Part shown: piece after piece, positions 4,513-41,699 of the stretch | Layout of the letters: every line of letters begins with the position of its first letter | Position numbering within the stretch: position 1 is the first letter of the stretch | Source of the DNA: an uncultured Smithella sp. | GTDB taxonomy: Bacteria; Desulfobacterota; Syntrophia; Syntrophales; Smithellaceae | Direction of reading: 5' to 3' | Length of the DNA: 64,000 bases | Assembly: GCA_964547345.1 (NCBI GenBank) | Contig: CAZJMX010000012.1 | Location: forward strand, 20,710-84,709 | Translations under genes and position numbers: made by a program | The notes under the pieces: model-generated | The model's input: the letters and a program-made list of their open reading frames with translations, nothing else | Told to the model about the DNA's origin: nothing | Database searches by the model: none

Positions 4513-4584
4513 ATCTTTCCTGGTAAAAAGTGAAAAATCTGGGGCAAATAATCAGAATAAACAGCGGCTGTCAATCAAATAACG

Positions 4585-4770
4585 TCAGCGCCGTCCTAAA
4601 TAAAGAAGAATCAAACCGGCTACAATGGCGGAAATACCCATAAAACGCAGAGTGGAGTCCGGAAGTGTGGTGATTTTGGTAAGATATGTTTTTAGTTTTT
4701 CCGGGAAAACCAGATAGGGCAGGCCTTCAATGATAAAAACCATGCCTAGAACACACAAAAAGTAATCCAC
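4585..4770 (-). CDS. Small membrane protein, DUF2065-like
   Basis: Two hydrophobic helices (FLCVLGMVFIIEGLPYLVFPEKL ... ISAIVAGLILLYLG). I prefer GTG 4770 (GAGGA SD 6 nt upstream, 1 nt after the mazG stop) over the longer track ORF that overlaps mazG. Confidence 0.6.
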   Translation of the reverse strand: MDYFLCVLGMVFIIEGLPYLVFPEKLKTYLTKITTLPDSTLRFMGISAIVAGLILLYLGRR

Positions 4771-4771
4771 C

Positions 4772-5578: not shown

Positions 5579-5727
5579 TCTGCGTTTTCCTCTATTTATC
5601 GAGTCGGGCCGGTAAGTAGCACAATCCCCGGAAGCTGACAACGAAAGTCTTGCGTGACGACATGATCCCAGTATTCAGGTCAACTCCTCGGTTGACAGAC
5701 GCGGAATTTCCTTATAATCCGCTGGAT

Positions 5728-6600
5728 ATGTCGAATCAAAATTCCATCAACAAAGGCATTGTCTTCATTCTCCTTTCTGAGCTTTGTTTTACCGGCTCAA
5801 CGATTTTCTCCAAGTTGTTGACCAACTCGTCAAATGTTTCCGCTCTAGAGATTACATTTGCGCGTTTTTTTCTGGGATTTATTTTTATTTCGATCACCAT
5901 TTACAAAAATTCCATCTCGCTTGCGCCCAATAAACTTTCTTTACTGGTTTGGCGGGGTGTGCTGAATACCGTTGCCGTGATTTTATTTTTTCTGGCGTCT
6001 CAGTACACAACAATTACTAACACGCATATGCTGAACATGACCTATCCCTTCTTTATTTTTCTTTGTTCGCCGCTTTTTTTCCGGTCAGAGAAAATGTCGC
6101 CTTGGATGTATCTGATTCTGATCGTTGCGCTTGCGGGCATCTGGCTTATGATCAATCCCGATTGGAATTCCGTCAACAAGGGAGATGTTTTTGGATTGTT
6201 GTCCGGGATTATTTCAGCGTTTGCGATCATTACACTGAATATGGCGCGTCAAAACGATTCGACGCCTGTGGTTCTCTTTTATCTGATGTCTATTGGAACG
6301 GTCATAAACGGTCTGGTGATGTTGCCTGTTTTTGTCTGGCCGCAGGGCAGCCAGTGGCTGCTTTTACTGGCTTCTGCATTGGTCGGTGTTATCGGGCAGA
6401 TTTGCATTACCTACGGCTATAAATACATTACGGTACGGGCCGGCTCGCTTGTTTCCACATCACGTATTCTGTATGCCGTCCTGCTGGGGATGCTGATTTT
6501 CAGCGAAGACCTGACATTTAGGATCGCTGCGGGCGGGCTTGCGATTCTGCTTTCCATTGCGGCCGTGACCTGGTTGCAAAAGCCCGCAAGCAGCGTGTAG
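5728..6600 (+). CDS. EamA/DMT family transporter
   Basis: About ten hydrophobic segments across two EamA-like halves. Start is uncertain (TTG 5650 in the track vs ATG 5728). Confidence 0.8.
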   Translation: MSNQNSINKGIVFILLSELCFTGSTIFSKLLTNSSNVSALEITFARFFLGFIFISITIYKNSISLAPNKLSLLVWRGVLNTVAVILFFLASQYTTITNTHMLNMTYPFFIFLCSPLFFRSEKMSPWMYLILIVALAGIWLMINPDWNSVNKGDVFGLLSGIISAFAIITLNMARQNDSTPVVLFYLMSIGTVINGLVMLPVFVWPQGSQWLLLLASALVGVIGQICITYGYKYITVRAGSLVSTSRILYAVLLGMLIFSEDLTFRIAAGGLAILLSIAAVTWLQKPASSV

Positions 6601-24620: not shown

Positions 24621-26012
24621 TTAATCGACCCAGCCACCGCCGATGTTCAGGCGTTTGAGTTTTTCCACCAATGTCGTGCGGTTGAGATTGAGAAGCTTAG
24701 CCGCGCGGTTCTTGACGCCGCCGCTCATTTTCAGCGCTTTGAGCAGCAGTTCCTTTTCCAGCCGGCTGACATGATCGTTAAAGTCGATACCATCTTCGGA
24801 GAAAACAACCGGGATCTTTGCTGCATCCACACCCGGAATGTTTCTTATTTTCGCAGGTAAGTCCTCAATGGAGATGTCGCCTTCCTCTTTCATGACGACC
24901 AGCATTTCGATGAGATTTTGCAATTCACGCACATTTCCCGGCCAACCGTAACGCATGAGGTAGTTGACGGTGTCGGGCGAAATGTGTTCGACGTTCTTTT
25001 TTTTAAGCTTATTGAATGTGATCAAAAAGTGATTGGCGAGAATCAAAATGTCCGATCCTCGTTCTCTGAGCGCCGGCAGATTGATGGGAATGACGTTGAT
25101 CCGGTAAAAAAGATCTTCACGGAATTTTTTTTCGGCGACAGCTGTTTCCAGATTTTGATTTGTGGCTGCGATGATCCGGACGTCGGCGTTGATGGTTTTG
25201 ACTCCTCCGATCCGTTCAAATTGTTTTTCCTGAATGACGCGCAAAACCTTGACTTGAAGCGACGGGCTCATGTCGCCGATTTCGTCCAGAAAGATCGTGC
25301 CGCCCTGGGCCAGTTCGAAACGGCCCATCCGGTTGCGGATGGCTCCGGTAAAAGCGCCTTTTTCATGGCCGAATAATTCGCTCTCCAGTAGCTCTTCGGG
25401 AATTGCGCCGCAATTGACCGGAATCATCGGCTGGTTCCTCCGGTCGCTTTTAAAGTGAATTGCCCGGGCGACCAGTTCCTTGCCGGTTCCGCTCTCGCCA
25501 GTGATCAGCACGGTGCTGTCGGAATTGGATACTTTTTCAATGATATCAAATACTTTTTTCATGCAATCGCTGTAGCCGATGATTTTGTCAAAGTCCTGTC
25601 TCTCTTTCAAATGTTCCTTCAGCGAGACATTTTCATCGCGGAGTTTGGCAAAATTCATCGCACGGCTGACCGATAATTTGACGAGATCGTCTTTGATAGG
25701 TTTGGTGATGAAATCGAAAGCGCCCATTTTCATGGCGGAAACGGCTGCATTGACTGTGCCGTGCCCGGTGATCATGATGACGATATTATCGCGATTCGCG
25801 TCTTTAATATATTTCAGAAACTCCAGGCCGTCGACATTGGGCATGCGAAGATCCGTGATGACCAGATCGTATTTGTCATCAAGGAAGGCTTCGATACCTT
25901 CCCGACCGTCATTAACCGCCTTGACTTCGTATCCTTCTTCTTTCAGAATTTCAGTGAGTGTTTCCTTGTTGAGGTCATTATCGTCGGCAACCAGTATTTT
26001 TCCATTTTTCAT
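24621..26012 (-). CDS. Sigma-54-dependent response regulator (NtrC family: REC + AAA+ + Fis-type HTH)
   Basis: REC (ILVADDND...VITDLRMP), GESGTGKE Walker A, GAFTGA sigma-54 contact motif, C-terminal HTH. ATG 26012 (MKNGK). No adjacent kinase. Confidence 0.92.
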
Positions 26013-26310
26013 GATGAATTCCTGTTGGTTTATGGACAGCAATTATTTTGACGTATATTAAGGTATTTGCGACATAAAAACAATAGTAAAAGGCTTAGAG
26101 CGTCAAAAAATAAACAGACAGGGTGGAAACCATATTACCCCGTCAGAAATCCAACGACATTTTTCAGGAAATACATTCTTTACCTTAAGTATTTCATTTT
26201 TTTGCCGAATAAAAAAAGAAAGAATGCATCGTCACGTCTTTGCTCGATGTATAAAGAAATTACAATTTGAAATCAATGTTATAAGTTGTGGGGACCAGAA
26301 AGTTGGCAAT

Positions 26311-26326: not shown

Positions 26327-26430
26327 TTTTGATTACAAATCTTCTCGGTTTTTGATTTCTCCGATTGCCGGGACGCAGATGAATGTTGTTTTTTACATTG
26401 AAGTAATAAATGAAAGAGTGGCTTTGATTG

Positions 26431-27264
26431 ATGTCGATTAGTACATTTGAACTGAAAAACAGCGATTTTGAAAAAATAAGCCGCCTTGTTTATGAGCAAT
26501 GCGGTATTTACCTTCATGAAGGTAAAAAAGAACTCGTTAAAGCCCGCCTCAGCAAACGGCTTCGAGCCGGCGGTTATCAATCCTTTATCGATTACTATCA
26601 CTATGTCACAACAGGAGAGGGGACGGATGAATTAATCTCGATGATTGATTCCATCTCTACCAATCTAACTTCTTTTTTTCGCGAGGAAAGTCATTTTGTT
26701 CGCCTGCGCCATGTTATCCAAACCGCCTTGGAGAAATCAGGCCATCACGGATCCAAAATGAAGTTTAAAATCTGGTCCGCCGGTTGTTCCACTGGAGAAG
26801 AGCCTTATACGCTGGCGATCACCATATCGGAGGCCGCCGGCCATCATTCTATGGACGCCTCCATTCTGGCAACGGATATTTCCACCAAGGTGTTGCGCAT
26901 TGCGGAAGCGGGCGTGTACGCGCAAGACCGCGTCAAAGGAATCGCCGCGCCCCTGTTGAAAAAATATTTTCAGGTAGGAACAGGAAAATCCGAAGGGCAG
27001 GTCCGCGTTAAGAACGATTTGAAGAAAACAATCACATTCCAGCGTTTTAATCTGATGGACACCTTTTCCGGACATAACGATTATGACATTATTTTCTGCC
27101 GGAATGTTATGATTTATTTCGATAAAAAGACGCAAAATGATCTGGTAAATAAATTCTATGGTGCACTAAAAAGCGGCGGTTACTTTTTTGTCGGTCATTC
27201 GGAAAGCTTAACCGGTTTGAAACATCACTTTAAGTACGTAGAACCGAGTGTTTATCTGAAATAA
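26431..27264 (+). CDS. cheR: Chemotaxis protein methyltransferase CheR
   Basis: CheR N-terminal helical domain plus SAM methyltransferase (IWSAGCSTGEEPYTLA, FCRNVMIYF). ATG 26431 (the track starts at TTG 26428). Confidence 0.93.
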   Translation: MSISTFELKNSDFEKISRLVYEQCGIYLHEGKKELVKARLSKRLRAGGYQSFIDYYHYVTTGEGTDELISMIDSISTNLTSFFREESHFVRLRHVIQTALEKSGHHGSKMKFKIWSAGCSTGEEPYTLAITISEAAGHHSMDASILATDISTKVLRIAEAGVYAQDRVKGIAAPLLKKYFQVGTGKSEGQVRVKNDLKKTITFQRFNLMDTFSGHNDYDIIFCRNVMIYFDKKTQNDLVNKFYGALKSGGYFFVGHSESLTGLKHHFKYVEPSVYLK

Positions 27265-27266
27265 TT

Positions 27267-27749
27267 ATGAGCGATTTAATAGTCGGAATATCTGATATTA
27301 AGATCAGTAACAATTTAAGCGACACGATTGTTACGTACGCGTTGGGATCCTGCATCGGCATTGCCGTGTATGATCCGATAGCCCGTGTGGGAGGCATGCT
27401 GCACTATATGCTGCCTGATTCTACACTGGATGAAAGAAAAGCCAGAGACAATCCGGCAATGTTTGCCGACACGGGAATTCCTTCGCTGTTTAAGGCTTGC
27501 TACAGCTTGGGGGCGGAAAAGAAGCGGATGATCGTCAGAGTGGCAGGCGGCGCCAGCATTTTGGATGACACCAACTTTTTCCGTATTGGCCAGAAAAATA
27601 TCATGGCGATGAGAAAAATATTCTGGAAAAACAATGTCATGATTACAACCGAAGATACTGGTGCGAATCACAACCGTACGGTTCGTCTGGAAATGGCCAC
27701 CGGCAAGACCTATGTTAAAACCTCCGGAGGTGAGATGAAGGAATTATGA
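27267..27749 (+). CDS. cheD: Chemoreceptor glutamine deamidase CheD
   Basis: 160 aa, CheD family (TYALGSCIGIAVYD, GMLHYMLP). Confidence 0.9.
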   Translation: MSDLIVGISDIKISNNLSDTIVTYALGSCIGIAVYDPIARVGGMLHYMLPDSTLDERKARDNPAMFADTGIPSLFKACYSLGAEKKRMIVRVAGGASILDDTNFFRIGQKNIMAMRKIFWKNNVMITTEDTGANHNRTVRLEMATGKTYVKTSGGEMKEL

Positions 27750-28597
27750 AAGTTATTAACCGTATTCTCAAATCAATTGAAACGATTCCGGCTTTTCCGG
27801 CGACTGGAAATAAAGTGGCGCAGTTGCTTAACAAAGCTGACTATTCCGTATTGCAGGTTGCCAATGTCATCAAATACGACCCATCCATTACTGCCAACAT
27901 TTTGAAAATGGCTAATTCAGCATACTTCAACTCGCAACACAAAATCAGCACGATCAATGATGCCGTCATGTACCTGGGGCAGAAGAATCTGCTGCGAGCG
28001 ATTCAGACGGCAGGCATTTCCAAATATTACAAAAAAGGCGCTTCCGGCTATTTCGACAGTGCCACGGATTTGTGGGAGCATTCCGTAGCCGTGGCGTTGA
28101 TGTCGCAGATTTTGTCTAAAAAAATAACGGGCGAAGAAGACACGACGCTCTATACGGCGGCGCTTTTACACGATGTCGGGAAAATTATTATGGGTGAGTT
28201 TGTCCGCGATGAGATGAAAAAAATATCGATGCTTGTTTCGCAGCATTCCATGTCGTTTCTGGAAGCGGAAGAAACAGTCCTGGGCATTAATCATGCCGAT
28301 CTGGGCGGAAAGATTGCCGAGCACTGGAATTTCCCTGCGGAAATTCGGGAGGCCGTCGCTTATCATCACCGGCCGGATTTACTGGAAAAGTCCGATAAGG
28401 TTATGCCCTGGATCGTCTACATGGCGGATGAAGCCTGTTTAATGATGGGGATCGGCAGTTCCGTGGAAGGTTTGGCGCAGCGCGCAGTCGGCGAGTTGCT
28501 CAAAAAGTTCAATTTAAGGATGAGAGATCTGGAAAGAAGCATGGTCATGCTTTCGGATGATTTAAATAGCGCCAGGGAACTCATTAACATCATCTAG
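27746..28597 (+). CDS. HDOD domain-containing signalling protein
   Basis: 283 aa. IETIPAFPATGNKV..., LHDVGKIIMG and HADLGGKIAEHWNFP are typical of the HD-related output domain. Start overlaps the cheD stop (ATGA). Confidence 0.85.
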   Translation: MKVINRILKSIETIPAFPATGNKVAQLLNKADYSVLQVANVIKYDPSITANILKMANSAYFNSQHKISTINDAVMYLGQKNLLRAIQTAGISKYYKKGASGYFDSATDLWEHSVAVALMSQILSKKITGEEDTTLYTAALLHDVGKIIMGEFVRDEMKKISMLVSQHSMSFLEAEETVLGINHADLGGKIAEHWNFPAEIREAVAYHHRPDLLEKSDKVMPWIVYMADEACLMMGIGSSVEGLAQRAVGELLKKFNLRMRDLERSMVMLSDDLNSARELINII

Positions 28598-28623
28598 GCG
28601 CAGGTATAAAGGAAGGTGACATT

Positions 28624-29055
28624 ATGTCATTTAATGTTTTAATCGTGGATGATTCCAACTCCATGAGAGCGGTGATTAAAAAGGTCATTACCATTTCGGG
28701 TTTTCAGATGGATCTGTGTCTGGAGGCCGGAAACGGAAAGCAGGCGCTGGAAATGCTGGGTAACAGCTGGGTGGATGTCATTGTTTCGGATATTAACATG
28801 CCGGAAATGAACGGTCTGGAGTTGCTCGATCAGCTGCGTCGGAATGATACACTCAAGGAAATTCCGGTCATCATGATCACAACAGAAGGATCCGATGAGC
28901 GCATGAAGGAAGCTTTTGCACGCGGGGCGAAGGGGTTTATTAAAAAGCCTTTTCTGCCGGAAGAAATAAAGAAGGTTCTTTATGAAGTCATAGGAGTCGG
29001 GCAAGATGGACAATATGAAGAAGACACAAGAAGTTCTGATGAACTCGATTTTTGA
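28624..29055 (+). CDS. CheY-like single-domain response regulator
   Basis: VLIVDDSNSMR ... VIVSDINMPEMNG ... FIKKPF receiver motifs, plus a 20-aa acidic tail. Confidence 0.88.
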   Translation: MSFNVLIVDDSNSMRAVIKKVITISGFQMDLCLEAGNGKQALEMLGNSWVDVIVSDINMPEMNGLELLDQLRRNDTLKEIPVIMITTEGSDERMKEAFARGAKGFIKKPFLPEEIKKVLYEVIGVGQDGQYEEDTRSSDELDF

Positions 29056-29455
29056 AGTATTCGAGAAAATGTTTTTTGTTTTTCTTGAGCCGCTTGATGA
29101 AGATGTCCGGTATGACCTGATCACGTCCATTCATTTCAGCGGGCCCATGAAAGGCGAAATCAAAGCCTATTTTTCCAGTGGCATTGCAGGAATCATGGTT
29201 CAAAATATGCTGGGACTGGAACCCAAAGAGGTGACGGAAAAAACCATGGAAGATTGCGCCAAGGAAGCGCTCAACATGATAGCCGGAAGTTTTCTCAACA
29301 AGCTGGAGCCCAAAAAAGTATTCGATTTGTCGATTCCAGCCTATGAAAAGGCAGAGGGAAGTTTTTCCAAAAATCCGGATCTGACGTTGAGTCTGGTCTT
29401 TGATTCCGACGATCAGCGCATGGGTCTTACGATGAACATTGAGCCCAAGAATTAG
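29006..29455 (+). CDS. CheX/CheC-family phosphatase-like protein
   Basis: 149 aa containing the E-x-x-N type segment KEALNMIAGSF. Start is uncertain (29006, 29015 or 29039) and overlaps the end of the preceding cheY-like gene. Confidence 0.6.
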   Translation: MDNMKKTQEVLMNSIFEVFEKMFFVFLEPLDEDVRYDLITSIHFSGPMKGEIKAYFSSGIAGIMVQNMLGLEPKEVTEKTMEDCAKEALNMIAGSFLNKLEPKKVFDLSIPAYEKAEGSFSKNPDLTLSLVFDSDDQRMGLTMNIEPKN

Positions 29456-29486
29456 CCCTGGGCGTTAGAAACCGGGCGGACAGTAA

Positions 29487-30551
<1,065 letters not shown>

Positions 30552-30553
30552 AA

Positions 30554-32758
30554 ATGGAATATGACAACTTGATAAAGCATCTCAACACATTGGCGCAGGA
30601 GTACCTCTTCCTGGACAGCAAGGACATTGATATTCCCACGGCAGGAAAGCTTCTTAATCACCTGGAAGGCATCATGGACGAGGCAAAAAAACAAAAGATC
30701 AACTCTGTCAGAAGTTGCGCCGCCAGTTTAAGCCAGATCCTGGAAAAAGCCATTCTCGATCAGATTGAAGACAAAGTCCAGGCAGCAGGTGTATTTGAAA
30801 GCGGCATTCATCTGATGCAGGAAATTGCGGACAGTTACAAAAACACAGGCAAATACGACGGAAGCATTCAGCCGTTTCTGGAAAAGACCAGTGCGGTTGC
30901 AGGTGTGGCAAGCCTGATGGGAGCATTGGATACTCAAACCGAAAAGCCCAATGAAGCAATGCCCGAAGCCAAGCCGCAGGACAACGAGACCATTCAGATA
31001 CAGGATGAATCTCTAACCCGTGACTTCATTGCAGAGGGGCTTGAATACATCGAAGAAATCGAAATCAACATCCTCAATCTGGAAAACGAACCGGAAAACA
31101 AAGATTTCATCAATGCCATTTTTCGTCCTTTCCATTCCATCAAGGGCGTAGCCAGTTTTCTGAATCTGGAGAGGATCCGGATGCTCGCGCACAACCTGGA
31201 AAGCCTGCTGGATAAGGCCAGAAACGGGGAGATCTCCGTGACGCCGGCCTTGATTGACGTTGTATTGGATGGCGCCGACGCGCTTAAAAGTCTGATCGGT
31301 CAATTGCGCGACGTACTGGAAGGGAAGCCCGCCGTCAAGCTGGATCTGGATATTCCAGCGCTTACGACCCGCATCCACAAAATCGAGCAGGGATTCGATA
31401 CGGAAGCCGGCGGGAAAAAACTAGGCGAAATTTTGGTTGACGAGGGTGTCATTTCTCAAGAAAAACTGGACAGCACGCTGGCCAATTCGGCATCGCCGGA
31501 TAAAAAAGTCGGCGAAGCTCTGATTGAAGAAGGGGTTGTCAAACCCAAGCAGGTTTCGCAGGCGTTGCGCAAGCAAGTTGAACAAGTGACGGATTTAACC
31601 ACCATCCGCGTGGATACGGTGAAGCTCGATGATTTGATTGATATGGTAGGTGAGCTGGTGATTACCCAGTCGATGATTTCTCAGGATTTGAAAAACCAGA
31701 TCAATGTTGATAAAGGTCTTGTCCGGGACATTTCCCAGTTTTTCCGCATTACCTCCGCCTTGCAGCGTGTTTCCACCAGTCTGAGAATGATCCCAATCAA
31801 GCAGACATTCCAGCGCATGTCACGACTGGTTCGGGATCTGGCCAAAAATGCCGGAAAAGTTGTGGCCGTCGAGCTGGTCGGCGAAGATACGGAAATCGAC
31901 CGCAATATGGTCGATGAAATTTACAATCCACTGGTGCACATGATCCGTAATTCAGTGGATCACGGATTGGAGTCACCGGAGGAAAGGGTCAAATCGGGAA
32001 AACCCGAAAAAGGGCTCATTACGCTGAAGGCCTATCACCGGGGCGGCAATATTGTGATCGAAATTGCCGATGACGGCAAGGGCCTGAACAAACAAAAAAT
32101 TGTCAATAAAGCCGTTAAATCCGGTCTACTCCAGGGTGATGAAAATCTCAGTGATCAGGAAATATATAAAATGATTTTCTTGCCGGGTCTGTCCACGGCG
32201 GAAAAAGTCACGGATGTTTCCGGACGCGGTGTGGGGATGGATGTCGTCAAACGCGCCGTGGAAAAACTGCGCGGAAAAATTGAAATTGAAAGCAACGTTG
32301 GCGAGGGAACAACGTTCATCACACGTTTCCCGCTGACGCTCGCAATTATTGACGGCATGATTGTGAAAGTCGGATCCGAGAGTTATATCCTGCCTACGAC
32401 CTCCATCCGCATGGCGCTTCGTCCACCGCGTGAAAGTTATACCAATGTTGTCGGCAAAGGCGAGATGATCAATGCGATGGGACAACTGATGCCGCTCATC
32501 AGGCTCTATGAGTTGTTTGAAATCGAACCGGAATGTAAGAACCCCTGGGAGGCCATTGTGGTCGTTGTCGATGGTGAAAGCGGCTCCAGATGCCTGATGG
32601 TCGATAAGATTGTGGGAAAGGCGGAAGTTGTGGTAAAAAGCCTGGGTGAAGGGTTGAAAAATATCAAAGGTCTGGCCGGCGGCGCCATCCTGGGCAACGG
32701 ACGAATCGGTTTGATCATCGATACGGAGGGATTGTATGAACTGGCCGAGGAACGCTAG
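30554..32758 (+). CDS. cheA: Chemotaxis histidine kinase CheA (atypical N-terminal extension and MshEN-like insert)
   Basis: 734 aa with Hpt His in FRPFHSIKG, H-kinase dimerisation region, HATPase (DHGLE, DDGKGL, GRGVGMD) and a C-terminal CheW-like P5 domain. Confidence 0.93.
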   Translation: MEYDNLIKHLNTLAQEYLFLDSKDIDIPTAGKLLNHLEGIMDEAKKQKINSVRSCAASLSQILEKAILDQIEDKVQAAGVFESGIHLMQEIADSYKNTGKYDGSIQPFLEKTSAVAGVASLMGALDTQTEKPNEAMPEAKPQDNETIQIQDESLTRDFIAEGLEYIEEIEINILNLENEPENKDFINAIFRPFHSIKGVASFLNLERIRMLAHNLESLLDKARNGEISVTPALIDVVLDGADALKSLIGQLRDVLEGKPAVKLDLDIPALTTRIHKIEQGFDTEAGGKKLGEILVDEGVISQEKLDSTLANSASPDKKVGEALIEEGVVKPKQVSQALRKQVEQVTDLTTIRVDTVKLDDLIDMVGELVITQSMISQDLKNQINVDKGLVRDISQFFRITSALQRVSTSLRMIPIKQTFQRMSRLVRDLAKNAGKVVAVELVGEDTEIDRNMVDEIYNPLVHMIRNSVDHGLESPEERVKSGKPEKGLITLKAYHRGGNIVIEIADDGKGLNKQKIVNKAVKSGLLQGDENLSDQEIYKMIFLPGLSTAEKVTDVSGRGVGMDVVKRAVEKLRGKIEIESNVGEGTTFITRFPLTLAIIDGMIVKVGSESYILPTTSIRMALRPPRESYTNVVGKGEMINAMGQLMPLIRLYELFEIEPECKNPWEAIVVVVDGESGSRCLMVDKIVGKAEVVVKSLGEGLKNIKGLAGGAILGNGRIGLIIDTEGLYELAEER

Positions 32759-32806
32759 CTGTCAATAAATTTCAGAGATGAGATTAAAATAAGGTGAGGT
32801 TGAATT

Positions 32807-33196
32807 ATGAATGAAAAAAATATCAAGGTTTTGGTTGTTGATGATTTCGCCACCATGAGAAAAGTGGTTCGCAATCTGCTCAAACAGGTCGGCTATGAAG
32901 ACATTGTTGAGGCGGAAGACGGCGTCATGGCCCTCAAGGCATTGAAGTCCCAGAAAATCGACGTTATTGTGTCGGACTGGAATATGCCGAACATGACCGG
33001 TCTGGAATTACTCAAAGCCGTGCGCGCGGACGCGGATCTGTCCAAAACGCCGTTTCTCATGGTCACAGCCGAAGCATTGCAGGATAACGTTGTCGCTGCA
33101 GTGAAGGCGGGTGTCAATAATTATATTGTTAAACCTTTTACGGCGGAAGTGCTCAATGAAAAAATTAAAAAAATCATGGAAGGCATTGATAAGTAA
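32807..33196 (+). CDS. cheY: Chemotaxis response regulator CheY
   Basis: 129 aa with canonical VLVVDDFATMR ... SDWNMPNMTG ... YIVKPF. Confidence 0.93.
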   Translation: MNEKNIKVLVVDDFATMRKVVRNLLKQVGYEDIVEAEDGVMALKALKSQKIDVIVSDWNMPNMTGLELLKAVRADADLSKTPFLMVTAEALQDNVVAAVKAGVNNYIVKPFTAEVLNEKIKKIMEGIDK

Positions 33197-33229
33197 ATTA
33201 CATCAGATCAGGATCAGGAAGGGGTACCT

Positions 33230-33691
33230 ATGAACGTCAAATTTATTAATCCGTTTTTGGATGGAACGGTCAGTGTTTTAAAAACAATGTCTTTTGTCGA
33301 ACCTCGCGCAGGCAAACCGTATTTGAAGATCGATAATCTGGCGAAGGGCGATATTTCCGGCATTATTGGATTGACCGGATCGGCTACCGGTTCTCTGGCC
33401 TTGAGCTTTAGTGAAGCGGCCATTCTCAAGATTGTTTCCAATATGCTTGGTGAACCCATCAAAAGCCTGAACAGCGATATTAAAGACGCGGTGGGCGAAA
33501 TCACCAATATGATTTCCGGTGTGGCCAGGAAGAATCTGGAAGCCGAAGGTTTTTACATTCAGGCGGCGATTCCCACCGTTGTGTCGGGGAGGGATCATTC
33601 GATTACCCACGTCATGGGCGGTCCGAGCTTGATCATCCCCTTTGAAATTGATGAAGGGACGTTTGTTGTGGACGTCTGTCTGTCGGAATAA
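33230..33691 (+). CDS. cheX: CheY-P phosphatase CheX
   Basis: 153 aa. MNVKFINPFLDG... N-terminus and the GEITNMISG (E-x-x-N) active-site motif. Confidence 0.85.
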   Translation: MNVKFINPFLDGTVSVLKTMSFVEPRAGKPYLKIDNLAKGDISGIIGLTGSATGSLALSFSEAAILKIVSNMLGEPIKSLNSDIKDAVGEITNMISGVARKNLEAEGFYIQAAIPTVVSGRDHSITHVMGGPSLIIPFEIDEGTFVVDVCLSE

Positions 33692-33703
33692 TTCGCGGCT
33701 TGG

Positions 33704-34519
33704 TTACTGGAGAATAATAATGCTGATCCGGCGGTTGCGTTGGTCGCGCGGATCCAGCGGAACCAGCAGCTCCTGATCCGCGTAACCCACGACGCGGGCA
33801 AACCGCGACGGATCCGTCCCGAACGCCTCCAATTCGCGTCGAGCGGCAGACGCTCGGGACGTGGAGAGTTCCCAGTTGGTAATCTGACCGCCCTTGAAAG
33901 GCGCGGAATCCGTGTGGCCTTCCACCACAATTTTTCCCGGCATCTCCCCTAGGTTATCGGCGACGAGTTTCAATATCTCCTTGGCTTTCGGGCTGGGTTG
34001 ATCAGAGCCTGTGGCAAACATCATCCCACCGTCCGAATCGATGATCTGAATGCGCACGCCTCCCTCAATCACATCCACCAGAATTTGATCGCGCACGCCC
34101 GCCATTTTTTCGTCAACGGATGTCCGGATTTTTTTGACCGTCTCTTCATCGCCTGCCGTGAGATTCTTCTTTGTTTTATTCAATCCGAAGTCAATCTTAC
34201 CTTTACCGCGGATGCTGGAATCGGGGGATTTTAAGGATTGTTTGGCGGATTCGCTGGAGAATCGGGGATCCGTCAATCTTGCATCCTTCATGGTAACAGC
34301 CGACGTGCCGCTTTCCTGAAATACGCTGTATTCCCGGAAATATTCGGACAGGGCTGCCCGTTTTTCATCGGAAACCATGCTCAAAAGCCACAAAAGCAGG
34401 AAGAAGGCCATCAGCGCCGTCACAAAGTCGGCGTAAGCCACTTTCCATGAGCCGCCATGACCGCCCGCCTGTTTCTTTTTAATTTTTTTAATAATAATCG
34501 GCTGGCGGTGCTCTTCCAT
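33704..34519 (-). CDS. motB: Flagellar motor stator protein MotB (OmpA-like C-terminus)
   Basis: WKVAYADFVTALMAFFLLLW plug/TM with conserved Asp. C-terminal OmpA/MotB peptidoglycan-binding domain (GHTDS..., NRRISIIIL). Confidence 0.9.
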   Translation of the reverse strand: MEEHRQPIIIKKIKKKQAGGHGGSWKVAYADFVTALMAFFLLLWLLSMVSDEKRAALSEYFREYSVFQESGTSAVTMKDARLTDPRFSSESAKQSLKSPDSSIRGKGKIDFGLNKTKKNLTAGDEETVKKIRTSVDEKMAGVRDQILVDVIEGGVRIQIIDSDGGMMFATGSDQPSPKAKEILKLVADNLGEMPGKIVVEGHTDSAPFKGGQITNWELSTSRASAARRELEAFGTDPSRFARVVGYADQELLVPLDPRDQRNRRISIIILQ

Positions 34520-34547
34520 AATATCTCAAATATTTCCCAGTTCAGAT

Positions 34548-35408
34548 TTATTTTTTAGCTGCGCGTAATGCGTCTTCCATTTCCACAAAAGACGGTTTGG
34601 CTTCCGACGGTATAACACGTCGGCCGAATTCCACGGCTACTTTGGGTGCCGCACCACCGCCGATGAAGGACAAGAGCGCCACTTTAATTACATTAAGAAA
34701 TTGCATATCTTCATTGGCAATAAACTCCATGTTTTTGGCAAGCGGACCTACATAACCGTAACACAGTAGGACGCCAAGAAACGTTCCCGCCAGGGCGGCG
34801 CCGATGCTTGCGCCCAGCACTTCTGGGGGTTCCTTGATTTTGGCCATGGTCAGAATAACACCTAAAACCGCGGCAACAATGCCCAGACCCGGCAGGCCGT
34901 CGGCCATCGTTGCTATGCTGTGGGCGGGTCCCATGGATTCTTCATGATGGGATTCCAGCTCCTGATCAATCAGGGATTCCAGCTCATGCGGCGCAATGGT
35001 GGTGGTCATCACCGTGCGTAAGGTGTCTGCGATCAGGTTGATGGCGGCATGGTTTTTCATTATTTTGGGATAGGCGGAAAAAAGCGGGCTTTTGGCAGGT
35101 TCGTCCACATCCGATTCAATGGAAACAAGCCCCTGCTGCCGGATTTTATAAAAGATGCCATTCATCATCAGGAGAATGTCGATGTAATCCTGCTTGGAAT
35201 TAGCTTTGTATGAAAATATCCGGGCAACAGAGCCGCCTGTCGCCTTGATCACTTTCAGCGGCGAGGCAACGACAAACGCGCCTATTGCAGCGCCCCCGAT
35301 AATCATAAGTTCTACGGGCTGAAATATAACGGCAAGATTGCCATTATGAATGAGATAACCGCCAATCACGCAAGATGAAACAATGATCATACCAATAATA
35401 GCAATCAT
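34548..35408 (-). CDS. motA: Flagellar motor stator protein MotA
   Basis: 286 aa, MotA/TolQ/ExbB channel family with 4 TMs (…GLPGLGIVAAVLGVI…). Confidence 0.9.
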   Translation of the reverse strand: MIAIIGMIIVSSCVIGGYLIHNGNLAVIFQPVELMIIGGAAIGAFVVASPLKVIKATGGSVARIFSYKANSKQDYIDILLMMNGIFYKIRQQGLVSIESDVDEPAKSPLFSAYPKIMKNHAAINLIADTLRTVMTTTIAPHELESLIDQELESHHEESMGPAHSIATMADGLPGLGIVAAVLGVILTMAKIKEPPEVLGASIGAALAGTFLGVLLCYGYVGPLAKNMEFIANEDMQFLNVIKVALLSFIGGGAAPKVAVEFGRRVIPSEAKPSFVEMEDALRAAKK

Positions 35409-35420
35409 GAAATAAGTGAC

Positions 35421-35960
35421 TTACCTCCTTTTTCCCCGCAGGATTTCTCGCTCGGTTTCAAAAACAAAACGAATGATTTCACCCTGCATAAAATCATCCA
35501 TATTAATAAAACGAATAGAGGTGTCATATTCCGGATGAGGTTTTTCGAATTCCAGCACTTCTCCATAGAGAAAAATGGCAATGGGTTTTTGTAGATTCAG
35601 CATGACCTTAACTTCCAGAACGTCACCCGGAGAAAAACATTTTCCCGTATTAAAACTCATCCCGCCGCCGCTGATATTCACTTTCGTCATGGATAAACAG
35701 TTGAAACCATCATGCTGGATGGTCAGCATGCGGATAATTTCGTCCAGTTTGGCATTAATGGTCTGGAGCCACTGTGCCATTAGTTGATCGTCAGGATTGG
35801 GTAAATCCTTGAATTCCGCAAGCAGCGATTCTCCGGCCAAGCGGGCGCGAAGTGAGCCCTTATCCGGGATATTTATAAGCGCGTATTGCAGTGGAATATA
35901 TACATCAACTCTTGAATACTCTCTTTTATTTTCAGATAATGAAAGATTATCGTCAATCAT
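35421..35960 (-). CDS. PilZ domain protein (c-di-GMP receptor type) co-transcribed with motAB
   Basis: RxxxR (REYSR, residues 13-17) and [DN]xSxxG (NISGGG, 95-100) motifs. ATG 35960 with a GGGAG SD. Confidence 0.8.
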   Translation of the reverse strand: MIDDNLSLSENKREYSRVDVYIPLQYALINIPDKGSLRARLAGESLLAEFKDLPNPDDQLMAQWLQTINAKLDEIIRMLTIQHDGFNCLSMTKVNISGGGMSFNTGKCFSPGDVLEVKVMLNLQKPIAIFLYGEVLEFEKPHPEYDTSIRFINMDDFMQGEIIRFVFETEREILRGKRR

Positions 35961-36000
35961 GGGCCACTCCCGGTGCAAAATTTGAATTCGCTAATCATTA

Positions 36001-36268: not shown

Positions 36269-39043
36269 ATGAGAAGTGGGAAAAATATTTTTTTAAGAAG
36301 AGCCTTTTTCTTTTTTATCGTTTTGGGTCTGACGCTGGGGGCTTCCGTCCGGGCTTCCGCAGCAGTGTATGCTATTCATTTTGCGTCATACAAAACGATC
36401 AAACAGGCCCAAGGGGATGCAAGCAGGCTTGGCGCTCAGGGACTTGATGCATTTGTGCAGGAAGCGGATGTTCATGGAAGCGGTAAGTGGTATCGCGTTT
36501 ATGTCGGAAAATTTGATACCCGGCAAAAAGCATCTGTGGCGGCAGCGGATATGAAAAGCAAAAAACAAATTGAAACCGTATTTATTCACTTGTTACCCAA
36601 CGTCAAATTTGAACCGGCTTTAAAGATTGCTGTCGGAGGTACTGCATCGCAGGCTACGTCGGAAAAAAACGCAGTTGTGGGCAATACGCAAACCAAACGC
36701 TACCATTTACCCGGGATGCCTTATTACGACAAAGTCAAGACGCATCATCGCATTTTCTTTCAATCCGAAAAGGAAGCTCTTGAGCGCGGATATTACAAAG
36801 CCGGAACAGGTAAGGATACGCCAAAGGAAACAGAAACAGAAACTCAAACACAAGCACCGCAACCGAAGAAAATCATGCCTGCGATTGCAGCTAAACTTTC
36901 CGGTGCCAAGCTTGATGCAAGGCAGATTGCCGCTAAAGATCAGGCAATCCAAAAAGAGGAATTAAAGTCTCTGATGCTGGGAGACAAGAAAGTCATGCCG
37001 CCGCCCCCTGCACTTGCGGATCTTGGAGAAGACAAAGACATTGGATTTGCGGATCCGGATGAAATGGATATCGTCGAGCCGACATCTTCATCCGAACTGT
37101 ACAACAAGGCACTGGGGCAACTTAAAGAAAAGCAGTATGAACAAGCCCTGATTACCTTCAAGGAGTTTATCAGCCGCGATGATACCAGCAAAGAATGGGG
37201 ACAGCGGGCTTTGCGTCACATGGCGGACTGTCACTATTGGCTGGGGAAAAAAGACGCAAACAAACAGGAGCTTTTAATCGCGGCGGAATTTTACAAAAAC
37301 ACGCTTACGAGTTTTCCCGATCCCCGCAAAGAAAACGCATTAACGTATTACCGCCTGGCGAAAACATACGAACAGCTCAAATATTACCCGGAAGCCATTA
37401 AACAGTACAGAAATCTGATTGCCAAATATCCGGATTCTACCTATGCGCCCGAAGCCTATTTTAAAATCGGCGAGGTTTATTACATAGACGGCAAATACGG
37501 TCAGGCTGCGGAAAGTTTCATTCAATATTTGATGAAATATCGCGGAAAGCGTAATGCGAAAAAGACCTATTATTTTGTTGCCCATTCTTTTTATAAAGCA
37601 AAGCAGTCAACCAACGCCGAAATATGGTTTCGGGATATCGCGAAAAAATGGCCGGATTTGACGGATATGCCCAAGGAGATGGTGCTTGATTACGGCCTGC
37701 ATAAGAATTCCATGCTGCGCTATGATGATGCGGCAGGCGCTTATTCCTTCTATGTTAACCTGTATCCGGCGGATCCGAAAATTAAAGAGGTGATGATGCT
37801 TCTGGCCGGTGCGTACCGGCAGGCCGGTCAGATTCCCGCGGCGTTGGCTATCTATCAACAAATCATTGGAAAGTTTCCCGAAGCAAATGAAGCCGGCGAA
37901 AGCATGCTGGCGATGGCCCAACTGGGCGTGGACAACCCGGGTGCTAAAGTGTTTCGGGGTTTAAACAATATCGAGAACTATAGATTTCCAATGGATACTT
38001 ATGATGAATTGATTATGAAAAAAGCCGTGGGAGACATCGCCGAGAAAGCGATGCTGCAAAAGTCGGCGGCACTGGTCAAAAAGGGACAGAGGCGAAAAGC
38101 AGCCGATGTCTACCTGGAATTCTTAAGCTTGTATCCGGAAAGCAAGCGAATCGCCGAAGCGTCGCGAGGGCTGAAATCCGCATCTACCGATCTGATTGAC
38201 GAATACTATGCGAAAAATGATTATCTGGCTGTGGCGTATGTATATTTCCGATCGTTTGGTGCAGTTGCCTTGCAGGCCGATGAATATCCTCAGGTCAACA
38301 AAATCGCGCTGAGTCTGAAAGAGTTACATCTGATGGATGATCATTCGACTCTCCTCAACAAGTACCTGAAAGTAGCAAAAGATGAACAGATCATGAATCG
38401 GGTGTCGCTTGAGCTGGCTGAAGGTTTGATCCTTCGCGGCCAATATGACGAAGCGGAAAAGATGCTCACGGTTTTGATGAACAAACCCTCCGTCAGGAAA
38501 ACCAACTTGTTGACAGAGATCAAAAAGAATCTGGCCGATATAGCCTACAGGAAGCAGCAATTCGCGCAGGCGGTTTCCAATTACGGCGCGGTGGTTCAAT
38601 CGGGTCAGACGATTCAAGACCCAGGTGCAGTTTATTCTCACTATGCACGGTCGCTCAAAGAGCAAAAGGAGAATGTCCTAGCCTTGCAGAACTATCTGAC
38701 AGCTGTGAAGTATTTAAGTGCGCAAAAGCGTGAAAAAGGTAATTTGGGGATCGCTTACAAGGATATCGGAGATCTTTATGTCAAAAATAACAATTTAGGC
38801 ATTGGGCTCAGCATGTACACGAAAGCACTCGACAACGCGACGGACGTGGAAATGAAACTCTGGTCGCAGTTTCTGGTAGGAGAGACTTACCTGAAATTGG
38901 AAAAGCAGGATCAGGCGCAGAATGTTTTCGCGCAGATGAAAGCGGCAGCCGGTCCGGAGGGTTTTTGGGCCAAGGTGGTGGATTTTTACATGGCCGATAC
39001 TCAATGGTGGGAAAAATACGGCACTCTCATAAAAAAAAGATAA
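36269..39043 (+). CDS. Secreted SPOR-domain / tetratricopeptide-repeat protein (924 aa)
   Basis: Signal peptide (…GASVRASA|AV). SPOR-like segment (YAIHFASYKTIKQAQ...WYRVYVGKFDTRQKA). Many TPR-like repeats (YPDSTYAPEAYFKIGEVYY etc.). Confidence 0.75.
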   Translation: MRSGKNIFLRRAFFFFIVLGLTLGASVRASAAVYAIHFASYKTIKQAQGDASRLGAQGLDAFVQEADVHGSGKWYRVYVGKFDTRQKASVAAADMKSKKQIETVFIHLLPNVKFEPALKIAVGGTASQATSEKNAVVGNTQTKRYHLPGMPYYDKVKTHHRIFFQSEKEALERGYYKAGTGKDTPKETETETQTQAPQPKKIMPAIAAKLSGAKLDARQIAAKDQAIQKEELKSLMLGDKKVMPPPPALADLGEDKDIGFADPDEMDIVEPTSSSELYNKALGQLKEKQYEQALITFKEFISRDDTSKEWGQRALRHMADCHYWLGKKDANKQELLIAAEFYKNTLTSFPDPRKENALTYYRLAKTYEQLKYYPEAIKQYRNLIAKYPDSTYAPEAYFKIGEVYYIDGKYGQAAESFIQYLMKYRGKRNAKKTYYFVAHSFYKAKQSTNAEIWFRDIAKKWPDLTDMPKEMVLDYGLHKNSMLRYDDAAGAYSFYVNLYPADPKIKEVMMLLAGAYRQAGQIPAALAIYQQIIGKFPEANEAGESMLAMAQLGVDNPGAKVFRGLNNIENYRFPMDTYDELIMKKAVGDIAEKAMLQKSAALVKKGQRRKAADVYLEFLSLYPESKRIAEASRGLKSASTDLIDEYYAKNDYLAVAYVYFRSFGAVALQADEYPQVNKIALSLKELHLMDDHSTLLNKYLKVAKDEQIMNRVSLELAEGLILRGQYDEAEKMLTVLMNKPSVRKTNLLTEIKKNLADIAYRKQQFAQAVSNYGAVVQSGQTIQDPGAVYSHYARSLKEQKENVLALQNYLTAVKYLSAQKREKGNLGIAYKDIGDLYVKNNNLGIGLSMYTKALDNATDVEMKLWSQFLVGETYLKLEKQDQAQNVFAQMKAAAGPEGFWAKVVDFYMADTQWWEKYGTLIKKR

Positions 39044-39053
39044 GGATAACAGC

Positions 39054-40289
39054 ATGCAGGATTTAACGTTACTGCAAGAATCATTTGAAAACTTCAACAA
39101 GGCGACGGCCGAACTGGAGCGCGCATACAGCCGTTTGGAAGAGCGCTTTGCGTCCCTCAATCAGGAGCTCGAAGATAAAAATGCAGAGCTCTTAAAAACC
39201 GTGGCGGAAAAAGAGCAAACCAAAAACTACCTGCATAATATTCTGGAGAGCCTGATCAACGGTGTGATTGTGACAGATCTGGAAGGCAGGATTCAAACCC
39301 TCAATGCTTGTGCCGAAACGTTTACAAACGTGCGCCAGGCTGATGTGTCCGGACGTCACATCAGTGTGTTATTTGACTCCATGCCCGCAGGTGACTGGCG
39401 GAACATTAATCTTGCCGAATATTTTAAAGGCGAGTCCGGGCATAAAGTCAAAATCCCCGGGCGGACGCTGGAAATATTCTGCACTCCCTTCAAATCGCCC
39501 GACGGCGAAGCAATCGGCAATGTTTTTGCGCTGCGCGATATTACGCGAACGGAAAAGCTCGAAGAAATGGCCAAACGAACGGAGAAATTCGCGGCAATGG
39601 GTGAAATGGCCGCCAATATCGCCCATGAGGTGCGCAATCCTTTGGGCAGTATTGAACTGTTCGCCTCGCTCCTCTTGAAGAATCTGGCGGAAAAAAGAGA
39701 CAGGGATCGTGTGGTGCAGATTATCTCCTCCGTGAAAAATGTTGATAATAAAATATCCAATCTGCTTTTGTTCACCCGCAGGCAAATGCCGCAGATGAAG
39801 GTGGTTCGCTTGCACCGCATTTTGGCGGATGTGATGAACTTTTCGGAACAGATTATCGAGCAGGCGGGAACGGAAGTTTCGGTGCGGCAAGACGCCAGCG
39901 ATATTCTCATCTCAGCGGACGCCGAAATGATCAAACAGGTCTTTCTGAACATCATTCTCAACGCTCAACAGGCCATGCCGGACGGCGGAAAACTTTTCAT
40001 CACGACGCGGCTTGCTCCTAAGAGCCTTCTCGAACCGGGACAGAAGATTGCCGAGGTGATTTTTGAGGATGCCGGACCCGGGATAGCGCCTTCCGATTTA
40101 TCCAGAATATTCGATCCGTTTTTCAGCACGAAGGAAAGCGGTTCCGGACTGGGGTTGGCCATTGCGCACAACATTGTGAGCGAGCACAATGGCGCCATAT
40201 CCGTGGAGAACGCGCCTTCGGGCGGCATGATCGTCAATATCAGTTTCCCCGCCGTGGCCTGTGGGGGAAAAGCAAGGGAGAGGGACTAA
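39054..40289 (+). CDS. Soluble PAS sensor histidine kinase (FlrB/FleS/FlgS-like)
   Basis: No TM. Coiled-coil plus PAS, H-box AHEVRNPLGSI, HATPase GSGLGLAIAHNIV. Directly upstream of a sigma-54 response regulator and flgB. Confidence 0.85.
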   Translation: MQDLTLLQESFENFNKATAELERAYSRLEERFASLNQELEDKNAELLKTVAEKEQTKNYLHNILESLINGVIVTDLEGRIQTLNACAETFTNVRQADVSGRHISVLFDSMPAGDWRNINLAEYFKGESGHKVKIPGRTLEIFCTPFKSPDGEAIGNVFALRDITRTEKLEEMAKRTEKFAAMGEMAANIAHEVRNPLGSIELFASLLLKNLAEKRDRDRVVQIISSVKNVDNKISNLLLFTRRQMPQMKVVRLHRILADVMNFSEQIIEQAGTEVSVRQDASDILISADAEMIKQVFLNIILNAQQAMPDGGKLFITTRLAPKSLLEPGQKIAEVIFEDAGPGIAPSDLSRIFDPFFSTKESGSGLGLAIAHNIVSEHNGAISVENAPSGGMIVNISFPAVACGGKARERD

Positions 40290-41699
40290 ATGTCTAACAC
40301 GGAGAGATTGCTGGTGGTCGATGATGATTCATCGATGCGCATGGCGCTGTATGAGTCTTTGAGCAGTTGCGGCTATGACGTGGAAACTGCTGAAAACGGC
40401 GCGGACGCGCTGGTTAAATTCAAAAGCGGCCATTTCGCCGGTGTAGTGACTGATATGCGGATGCCCAAAATGAGCGGTATGGATGTTTTAAGAGGCGTGA
40501 AACGCATATCACCGCAGACTCCGGTGATACTGATTACAGCTTACGGAACCGTCAATACGGCGGTGGAAGCGATGAAAGAAGGCGCCTCCGAATTTATCAT
40601 GAAGCCTTTTTCACTCGATGATCTGGAATTTGCCGTGAAAAACGTGCTGGCCGCCAATATTTCGTCCAAATCAGAAAAAGACGAGGATGAAACCGCCACG
40701 GGTGTTTATCCCCATAAAGAAATTATTACACAGGATCCCAAAATTCTGTCGCTTCTGGAGATGCTCAAAAGCGTGGCTAAAAGCAAGTCCAGTATTTTGG
40801 TTCAGGGGGAAAGCGGTACGGGCAAGGAACTCTTTGCGCGCTATGTCTATCGCCACTCGAACCGCCGTCAGATGCCGTTTGTCGCCGTGAATTGCGCGGC
40901 CATTCCGGCACAACTGCTGGAAAGCGAAATGTTCGGTTATGAAAAAGGCGCGTTTACCGGCGCTTCCGTTAAGAAAATAGGGAAATTTGAGCTGGCCGAC
41001 GGCGGAACCCTGCTGCTTGACGAAATATCCGAGATGGATATTCAATTGCAGGCCAAACTTCTACGCGTGATTCAGGAATCGGAAGTGGATCGCTTGGGTG
41101 GCAAAATGCCCGTGCCCATTGACGTGCGCATTATCGCAACGACGAATGCGGATTTGCAAAACCGGATTCTTCAAAAGACATTCCGCAGCGACCTTTATTA
41201 CCGGCTGAATGTCATTCCTGTGATCGTTCCACCGCTTCGGGAAAGAAACGGCGATGTGATCATCCTCGCGGAGTATTTCATTAAAAAATACAGCGAAGTT
41301 AATGAAAAGAAAGAACCGGTTCTCACGGCTCAGGCCAAAGCCCTCCTTCTGGGGCATGCCTGGCCCGGCAATGTGCGCGAACTGGAAAATGTCATGGAAA
41401 GAGCCGTCTTGATCTGTCCTGCTGATCAGATTACCCCCGCCCAGCTTTTCCTGGAGAAAAATGAAGGCAGTCCCGGCAAGTCGCAAGGTTTATCCGCATC
41501 TGAAACGAAGCCGCGTCAGGAAATTGACGAAGATTCGACCAACATGTTGTATGAGATGGAAAAAACCATGATTTATGATACGCTCAACCGCGTGAACTGG
41601 AATAAGACAAAGGCCTCAAAAATACTGGGAATCAGCGTCAGAACCATGCGCAACAAATTAAACGAGTACGGTATAAAAGATATGAATCCTGAAGAATGA
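40290..41699 (+). CDS. Sigma-54-dependent response regulator (FlrC/FleR/FlgR-like)
   Basis: REC (LVVDDDSS...VVTDMRMP), [14 protein letters not shown], Fis-type HTH (ASKILGISVRTMRNKL). Confidence 0.9.
   Translation: MSNTERLLVVDDDSSMRMALYESLSSCGYDVETAENGADALVKFKSGHFAGVVTDMRMPKMSGMDVLRGVKRISPQTPVILITAYGTVNTAVEAMKEGASEFIMKPFSLDDLEFAVKNVLAANISSKSEKDEDETATGVYPHKEIITQDPKILSLLEMLKSVAKSKSSILVQGESGTGKELFARYVYRHSNRRQMPFVAVNCAAIPAQLLESEMFGYEKGAFTGASVKKIGKFELADGGTLLLDEISEMDIQLQAKLLRVIQESEVDRLGGKMPVPIDVRIIATTNADLQNRILQKTFRSDLYYRLNVIPVIVPPLRERNGDVIILAEYFIKKYSEVNEKKEPVLTAQAKALLLGHAWPGNVRELENVMERAVLICPADQITPAQLFLEKNEGSPGKSQGLSASETKPRQEIDEDSTNMLYEMEKTMIYDTLNRVNWNKTKASKILGISVRTMRNKLNEYGIKDMNPEE

Follow-up and report, generated by a model that had tools for sequence, protein, structure and literature searches.

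A tandem MshEN_N-type motif between P1 and P3 of a P2-less flagellar CheA from an uncultured Smithella

Can a chemotaxis kinase carry its own receptor module for cyclic di-GMP (c-di-GMP)? The question is raised by the cheA gene in a 64,000-nucleotide stretch of DNA from an uncultured Smithella sp. (assembly GCA_964547345.1, contig CAZJMX010000012.1, positions 20,710 to 84,709; hereafter the window). The window is a flagellar and chemotaxis supercluster. A first-pass annotation, made from the sequence, had proposed that this CheA contains a tandem motif of the MshEN type, a c-di-GMP receptor domain, between its Hpt domain and its dimerisation/ATPase core, in place of the P2 domain. P2 is the CheY/CheB-docking domain, which is found in classical CheA but is not essential. 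The gene and its parts lie at the following positions of the window.

30554..32758, forward strand: cheA, the longest open reading frame (ORF) here, 734 aa, with the domain order N-terminal helical domain, P1 (Hpt), MshEN_N, P3, P4, P5 and without P2
30554..30901, forward strand: N-terminal helical domain, residues 1-116 (five helices; AlphaFold predicted local distance difference test (pLDDT) 78-93)
31007..31387, forward strand: P1 / Hpt, residues 152-278 (Pfam Hpt at 155-251, E 4.9e-14)
31418..31489, forward strand: MshEN motif 1, residues 289-312, KLGEILVDEGVISQEKLDSTLANS, its terminal Gln replaced by Ser312
31490..31504, forward strand: spacer ASPDK, residues 313-317 (5 residues; more variable than any other part of the insert, entropy 1.56)
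31505..31576, forward strand: MshEN motif 2, residues 318-341, KVGEALIEEGVVKPKQVSQALRKQ, every key position filled (entropy 0.43, like the catalytic domains)
31598..31771, forward strand: P3 dimerisation domain, residues 349-406 (Pfam H-kinase_dim E 8.7e-14; model helix 355-381)
31925..32338, forward strand: P4 ATP-binding kinase domain, residues 458-595 (Pfam HATPase_c E 1.9e-17)
32354..32740, forward strand: P5 CheW-like domain, residues 601-729 (Pfam CheW E 6e-20)

Translated in frame, nt 31418-31576 give KLGEILVDEGVISQEKLDSTLANSASPDKKVGEALIEEGVVKPKQVSQALRKQ, which is residues 289-341 of CheA and matches exactly the two 24-residue copies and 5-residue spacer described by the first-pass annotation, both copies fitting its pattern. 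The deviations it listed were also correct, namely a Lys at the start of each copy, Val at residues 319 and 334, and Ser at 312. All four Gly are kept (G291, G298, G320 and G327), and so is the hydrophobic cluster (L290, L305, L309, V319, V334 and L338, including two conservative Leu-to-Val changes), while the motif-end Gln is kept in motif 2 (Q341) and motif 1 ends in Ser312. The equivalences from MshE to CheA are R9=K289, L10=L290, G11=G291, G18=G298, L25=L305, L29=L309 and Q32=S312 for motif 1, and R38=K318, L39=V319, G40=G320, G47=G327, L54=V334, L58=L338 and Q61=Q341 for motif 2; the Gly-to-Gly distance is 29, as in MshE. Scanned with the relaxed PHI-BLAST pattern of Wang et al. 2016, [RKPN]hGxxhhxx[GAS]hhxxxxhxxxhxx[QNKRYWST], all six frames of the 64-kb window yielded two occurrences, both in the CheA insert.

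The identity of the insert was assessed with profiles. NCBIfam NF053729 ('cyclic di-GMP-binding domain-containing protein, MshE-related'), a model of 53 positions, aligned residues 289-341 with profile positions 1-53/53 and scored 49.8 bits, above its cut-off of 38; the E-values were 2.1e-13 for the whole CheA and 8.8e-15 for an 89-aa fragment. These profile statistics exclude chance as the source of the match. Local NCBIfam matches of the insert, to NfrB (a c-di-GMP-activated glycosyltransferase) and PilB, favour the same assignment, and Pfam gave the fragment a weak DUF4388 match only. A phmmer search of the PDB with residues 271-359 found PilF (6f8l, E 2e-11) and Vibrio cholerae MshE (5htl, E 3.9e-5), and a profile of 26 CheA inserts found PilF (3.1e-29), Geobacter PilB (1.9e-13), the c-di-GMP domain of PilF (8pdk, 6e-9) and 5htl (1.7e-8).

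The predicted fold agreed with the profiles. An AlphaFold model of residues 283-347 (pLDDT 87.6) formed a four-helix bundle with helices at 290-296, 302-311, 319-325 and 331-346. When this model was compared by Foldseek with 350,542 PDB chains, the top 16 matches were MshEN-type domains without exception, and the best was 5htl_A, MshE with c-di-GMP (TMq 0.80; root-mean-square deviation 1.3 Å over 57 columns); the Foldseek E-values were modest (0.011) because the domain is short. The MshEN-type identity that had been proposed thus held in the NF053729 profile, in similarity to solved domains and in the predicted structure. Taken together, sequence and model support well the assignment of segment 289-341 as an MshEN_N-type tandem module at the P2 slot.

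The identity of the protein itself is given by NCBIfam CheA models (E 1e-128), and its Hpt, H-kinase_dim, HATPase_c and CheW domains each lie above the Pfam cut-off. The phospho-acceptor His194 (nt 31133-31135) lies within FRPFHSIKG, an HSIKG motif, and is invariant among orthologs. The full-length AlphaFold model was of low overall confidence (pLDDT 63; P5 poorly built) and was used for secondary-structure boundaries only. It places P1 helices at 152-178, 183-202, 206-223, 231-255 and 267-278 (the fifth helix) and insert helices at 290-296, 302-311, 319-325 and 331-343. The P1 helices stop at 278, the insert helices follow and the P3 helix runs from about 355, so the insert is the sole folded element between P1 and P3. 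Connectors are short: roughly 10 residues link P1 helix E with the bundle, and P3 follows the bundle after some 8-14 more. The P2 / CheY-binding models PF07194 and PF09078 had no match in CheA at E<=1, and the roughly 10 residues between the P1 helix at 267-278 and the motif start at 289 leave no space for a P2, so that the location proposed for the insert was confirmed.

To assess how far the module is conserved, we compared CheA relatives at several distances. Close orthologs, 120 clusters of Smithella, Smithellaceae and Syntrophaceae metagenome-assembled genomes (MAGs) with 74-100% identity, kept the motif positions, with a mean entropy of 0.49 at key positions and 0.90 at x positions; motif 2 matches the catalytic domains in conservation. 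An exhaustive search of 1.84 billion representative proteins (50% identity clusters) with residues 281-416, the insert plus P3, returned 2463 matches at E<=1e-3 and 301 at E<=1e-10. The first-pass annotation had suggested a survey of homologs, and here the insert aligned end to end, directly before P3, in 114 of the best 150 clusters with its motif residues conserved. All full-length representatives at 29-56% identity matched NF053729 (59/59), and P2 was absent from 58 of these 59, one having a P2 match. The whole-protein alignment of the 59 CheAs contains 8 invariant columns, among them G291 and G320, and L294, L323 and Q341 are each at least 90% conserved.

Column counts over 115 diverse inserts gave the same picture. 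In motif 1, G291 was kept in 114, L294 in 110 and G298 in 98, and 100 had Gln at 312; in motif 2, G320 was kept in all 115, L323 in 107 and Q341 in 114, and the G327 position was Gly in just 55. Lys was the most frequent residue at position 1, followed by Arg and then Pro. The x positions vary while the motif positions stay constant across these inserts (more than 100 clusters at <50% identity). Residue 312 (nt 31487-31489), Gln in most of the diverse inserts, is E, A, K, S or G in the Smithella/Smithellaceae clade, which may reflect lineage-specific tuning of affinity or the decay of one half-site. Between the phospho-His and the Gly of motif 1 the spacing varies little, being 97 residues in the window CheA and 94-112 in most relatives; Gly-to-Gly distances in relatives are mostly 30-31, some 25-28, with spacers of 1-10 residues. 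In seven Nitrospira/Nitrospirota CheAs the motifs are 1-2 residues apart (ALSQQKRVGEILVEQ) and the Gly-to-Gly distance is 25-26.

Among the 80 GTDB species loci nearest the query, the insert was present in 40 CheAs, and the other 40 matched in P3 only. The insert-bearing loci belong to Smithella, Syntrophales, Syntrophobacteraceae, Desulfobacterales, Syntrophorhabdus, Nitrospira/Nitrospirota, Nitrospinales, Zixibacteria, Planctomycetes, Omnitrophota, Chitinispirillia, Gemmatimonadales, Methylomirabilis and Lambdaproteobacteria. Cultured hosts of the insert were sought among the CheAs of Paraperlucidibaca baekdonensis DSM 26022, Acidovorax and Mitsuaria, and these were rejected, as they match in P3 only and lack the insert. 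In the locus of one Nitrospinales MAG, a 679-aa ORF that is not a CheA (4492-6528 of that locus, forward strand) lies just downstream of CheA and matches the CheA-insert hidden Markov model at 38 bits, which makes it another MshEN-like protein of that chemotaxis locus. At the level of sequence, the survey shows that the architecture is common and its motif under selection, and says nothing on its frequency among all CheAs.

We next considered whether such a module would bind c-di-GMP. Isolated N-subdomains suffice for binding, as V. cholerae MshEN_N 1-62 binds with a dissociation constant (KD) of 0.35 μM and PilF159-221 at 54 nM. PilF GSPII-B has a native Lys167 at motif position 1 and a KD of 6 nM, and its K167R variant is 25-fold worse (PMC11731258); Lys at position 1 of the CheA motifs is therefore not a defect. 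The motif-end Gln hydrogen-bonds the ribose/phosphate of c-di-GMP. Its replacement in PilF (Q190E) caused a 158-fold loss with about 1 μM binding left, and binding was abolished only in the double Gln mutant (PMC11731258); in MshE, Q32A binds 9-fold and L29V 4-fold more weakly, the Leu-to-Val change being a mild one. By analogy with these domains, and judging from sequence and model, the window CheA insert likely binds c-di-GMP, with an affinity that is probably micromolar, having probably been lowered by Ser312 and by both replacements of Leu with Val.

The first-pass annotation had regarded a kinase of this kind as an unusual design with no characterised example, and this claim did not stand. 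DVU_1594 is a CheA of Desulfovibrio vulgaris. Wang et al. 2016 (PMC5013675) aligned its residues 245-319 in their supplement, listed CheA among the MshEN partners (MshEN_N-CheA fusions) and reported in the supplement an isothermal titration calorimetry (ITC) measurement of Aeromonas CheA 261-390 with c-di-GMP, giving a KD of 2.6 μM. With fusions listed and an ITC value given there, the CheA fusion and its binding ability are already published, and the insert is widespread. The Aeromonas veronii CheA (EKB11881; PMC5013675, Suppl. Tables 4 and 6) likewise has its MshEN_N module directly upstream of P3, but it keeps a CheY-binding P2 and has a more degenerate motif 1 (MLG, with Met at position 1) and a longer spacer. 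By comparison, the window CheA is without P2 and has the canonical 5-residue spacer and a better motif 1, in which the Gln is missing. The claim of an unprecedented design thus fails, and the window CheA adds a P2-less example to a fusion type that is catalogued and functionally unexplored.

Other known systems share parts of this arrangement. The N-domain of V. cholerae MshE (5HTL) has the same two 24-residue motifs with a 5-residue spacer, four Gly and Leu clusters, and the predicted CheA bundle is superposable on it; MshE, however, has an additional alpha/beta MshEN_C, regulates an ATPase of type IV pili or type II secretion, and carries Arg at position 1 and Gln at the end of both motifs, whereas the CheA insert is the N-subdomain only and sits inside a histidine kinase. 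The best sequence match to the insert is GSPII-C (residues 299-361) of Thermus thermophilus PilF (8PDK, 6F8L), but PilF bears triplicated domains on a pilus ATPase and makes a C-subdomain contact through D266 that the CheA insert lacks. Input of c-di-GMP to chemotaxis is also known from systems with separate adaptors (MapZ-CheR1 in P. aeruginosa, the PilZ chemoreceptors Tlp1/Cbp1, and PlzC-CheX in V. cholerae); these use PilZ on adaptors or receptors, in contrast to the window CheA, where the receptor module is within the kinase polypeptide. In CckA and ShkA, c-di-GMP does bind the kinase polypeptide and alters the catalytic cycle, but the sites are the CA domain of CckA and the Rec1-Rec2 linker of ShkA, and neither protein is CheA-class or uses MshEN.

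The reading that we favour, and consider probable, is that an MshEN_N bundle in the P1-P3 tether of this P2-less flagellar CheA binds c-di-GMP and alters kinase output. Residues 289-341 would form the four-helix bundle of MshEN_N, the 53-residue module that binds one c-di-GMP in MshE, PilB, PilF, NfrB and related proteins, and this module is built into the P1-P3 tether of a CheA lineage without P2. One c-di-GMP would be bound, with a KD between sub-micromolar and low tens of micromolar, and the bundle with its ligand, or the side of the nucleotide that stays exposed, would change how P1 reaches the ATP site of P4 or CheY. As P1 access would be altered by the ligand, we propose that the output of the chemotaxis kinase would depend on the c-di-GMP level of the cell, and this control may act alongside a PilZ protein encoded next to motAB. 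Because the apo bundle of PilF is largely pre-formed, regulation through a liganded surface that engages P4, P1 or CheY, or through stiffening of the tether, would be likelier than folding on binding. We infer that this CheA binds c-di-GMP and that binding alters its kinase activity, whether by activation or by inhibition.

Several points weigh against this reading. The T2SSE_N/MshEN model of Pfam, PF05157, a search with which had been suggested as a check in the first-pass annotation, had no match at E<=1 in the whole CheA or the 89-aa fragment. PF05157 models a larger T2SSE N-domain, and we did not take the miss as a refutation because the module is recognised alike by the 53-residue NCBIfam model, by the profile search of the PDB and by the fold comparison. 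The AlphaFold network probably saw 5HTL in training, and the survey is biased to insert carriers, since relatives were retrieved by similarity to the segment plus P3. As to the site itself, Ser312 in place of the motif-1 Gln means a lost ribose-phosphate contact, the sole missing contact, and V319 and V334 replace Leu, a change that at L29 cost MshE 4-fold. MshEN-like domains that do not bind c-di-GMP exist (XpsE, PilF GSPII-A and X. citri PilB). No diguanylate cyclase gene was found in the window, and none of the 53 larger window ORFs scanned was a GGDEF, EAL or HD-GYP gene. In the literature, with most subscription journals outside coverage, no functional study of c-di-GMP acting on CheA activity or behaviour was found beyond Wang et al. 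2016.

Part of this evidence would also fit a true MshEN_N homologue without useful c-di-GMP affinity, serving as a rigid spacer or as a docking surface, for instance for a CheY, CheX, the HDOD protein or the PilZ protein. Ser312 offers no polar contact and residue 312 is free in the Smithella clade, the fourth Gly is kept in 55/115 of the distant inserts, and spacers range from 1 to 10 residues. Binding is not a constant property of the family, as the documented non-binding domains show; PilZ docks on the N-domain of X. citri PilB, the fold matches to our segment include PilB-PilZ complexes (7lkm/7lkn), and the insert occupies the slot of the CheY-docking P2. Nevertheless, the invariant residues are those that make the guanine pocket, namely the two RLG Gly, whose backbone amides reach O6/N7, the Leu clusters and the Gln. 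MshE and PilF variants that have lost one Gln still bind in the sub-micromolar to micromolar range, and the Aeromonas CheA fragment has a KD of 2.6 μM even though its motif 1, with Met at position 1, is more degenerate. As the conserved residues are precisely those of the nucleotide pocket, we rate a non-binding module as unlikely.

Far less probable is that the ligand is another cyclic dinucleotide, for example 3'3'-cyclic GMP-AMP (3'3'-cGAMP), a messenger of some Deltaproteobacteria. The window comes from a deltaproteobacterium of the Syntrophales type, and V. cholerae MshEN_N does bind cGAMP, but weakly (KD 330 μM), about 600-fold more weakly than MshE binds c-di-GMP; both half-sites of the CheA insert retain the Gly-X backbone geometry by which guanine O6/N7 is selected, and the window showed no evidence of cGAMP signalling. 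That the segment is a generic helical, low-complexity linker with a chance resemblance is effectively refuted: PF05157 is silent and the full-length AlphaFold pLDDT at the insert is 59-78, but the segment matches a curated 53-residue model end to end (E 2e-13), the insert profile matches PilF (E 3e-29), the fold matches are exclusively MshEN-type, the pattern is unique in the six frames of the window, and over 100 clusters at <50% identity keep the motif positions.

The favoured reading, c-di-GMP binding by the tether module, may extend beyond this genome. We put forward tentatively, as a possibility of somewhat less than even weight, that c-di-GMP acts directly, as an allosteric signal, on the flagellar chemotaxis kinase, through a P1-P3 MshEN_N tether, in a large, multi-phylum clade of P2-less CheAs including Syntrophales, Nitrospira, Planctomycetes, Zixibacteria, Omnitrophota and others.

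The surrounding genes place this CheA at a motility locus. They lie at the following positions of the window.

26428..30551, forward strand: upstream genes of the same operon, cheR, cheD, an HDOD gene, cheY, cheX and cheB (Pfam)
27746-28597, forward strand: HDOD-domain gene between cheD and cheY (E 7e-57)
28624-29055, forward strand: first cheY of the che operon
29006-29455, forward strand: cheX-like ORF (CheX E 1e-11, much weaker than the second CheX)
32807-33196, forward strand: downstream cheY (Pfam Response_reg E 1.8e-29)
33230-33691, forward strand: downstream (second) cheX (Pfam CheX E 1.4e-26)
33704-34519, reverse strand: motB (Pfam MotB_plug, OmpA)
34548-35408, reverse strand: motA (Pfam MotA_N)
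35421-35978, reverse strand: PilZ-domain gene, 185 aa, first in the motAB operon (Pfam PilZ E 3.8e-8)
36269-39043, forward strand: SPOR/TPR protein, 924 aa, with an N-terminal SPOR and many TPR repeats, between PilZ-motAB and the flagellar regulators

The PilZ-motA-motB operon (33704..35978, reverse strand) is convergent with the che operon, tail to tail, an arrangement kept in two Smithella loci. Both motifs of the PilZ protein are intact, RxxxR as REYSR and NxSxxG as NISGGG, which makes it, on its sequence, a second candidate c-di-GMP receptor at the motility locus. Its position next to motAB suggests a c-di-GMP-dependent stator or brake factor. With these two c-di-GMP motifs, the PilZ protein is an independent indication that motility at this locus is under c-di-GMP control. 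A scan of the window with Rfam for c-di-GMP riboswitches gave two tRNAs only.

The order of the che operon, cheR-cheD-HDOD-cheY-cheX-cheB-cheA-cheY-cheX, is kept in seven Smithella and Syntrophales loci. The HDOD gene was considered as a marker of the insert and rejected, as HDOD genes also adjoin at least three insert-less CheAs; there is no specific link between HDOD and the insert, because HDOD neighbours CheAs with and without it in many distant phyla. No CheW or chemoreceptor (MCP) genes were present among the ORFs scanned in and near the che operon (26428-35978), where a few small ORFs were unscanned. The first cheY and the cheX-like ORF overlap by 50 nt as listed (29006-29055), and the true start of this first cheX is probably a downstream codon. 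Genes for two REC-sigma54-HTH (helix-turn-helix) activators and a PAS histidine kinase lie on either side of the che/mot genes, at 24621-26042 (reverse strand), 39054-40289 (forward strand) and 40290-41699 (forward strand). Of these, the two at 39-41.7 kb, which shortly precede flgC/fliF, resemble a flagellar regulator of the FlrB/FlrC type (PAS kinase plus sigma-54 activator), and beyond this FlrBC-like pair lie the genes from flgC through flhG.

The N-terminal domain of CheA had zero Pfam or NCBIfam matches in residues 1-116. It was considered as a degenerate second Hpt and this was rejected, as BLASTP of residues 1-119 against 149-259 showed no similarity. Many distant CheA relatives have two Hpt His motifs, in place of the helical N-terminal domain.

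In motility, known targets of c-di-GMP are the motor (YcgR-type brakes), receptors with PilZ domains and, via PilZ adaptors, CheR or CheX. A receptor module within CheA would put c-di-GMP at the central kinase. If this is true, the nucleotide would override or retune chemotactic signalling at the kinase itself, and not via PilZ adaptors or motor brakes. What is published on the function of the CheA module is apparently one ITC value in a 2016 supplement. The window CheA is a clean example of the type, with canonical spacing and short connectors on both sides, and its natural Gln-to-Ser change could tune affinity. The architecture is not a curiosity, as it is common and conserved in many uncultured lineages, with the module in place of P2.

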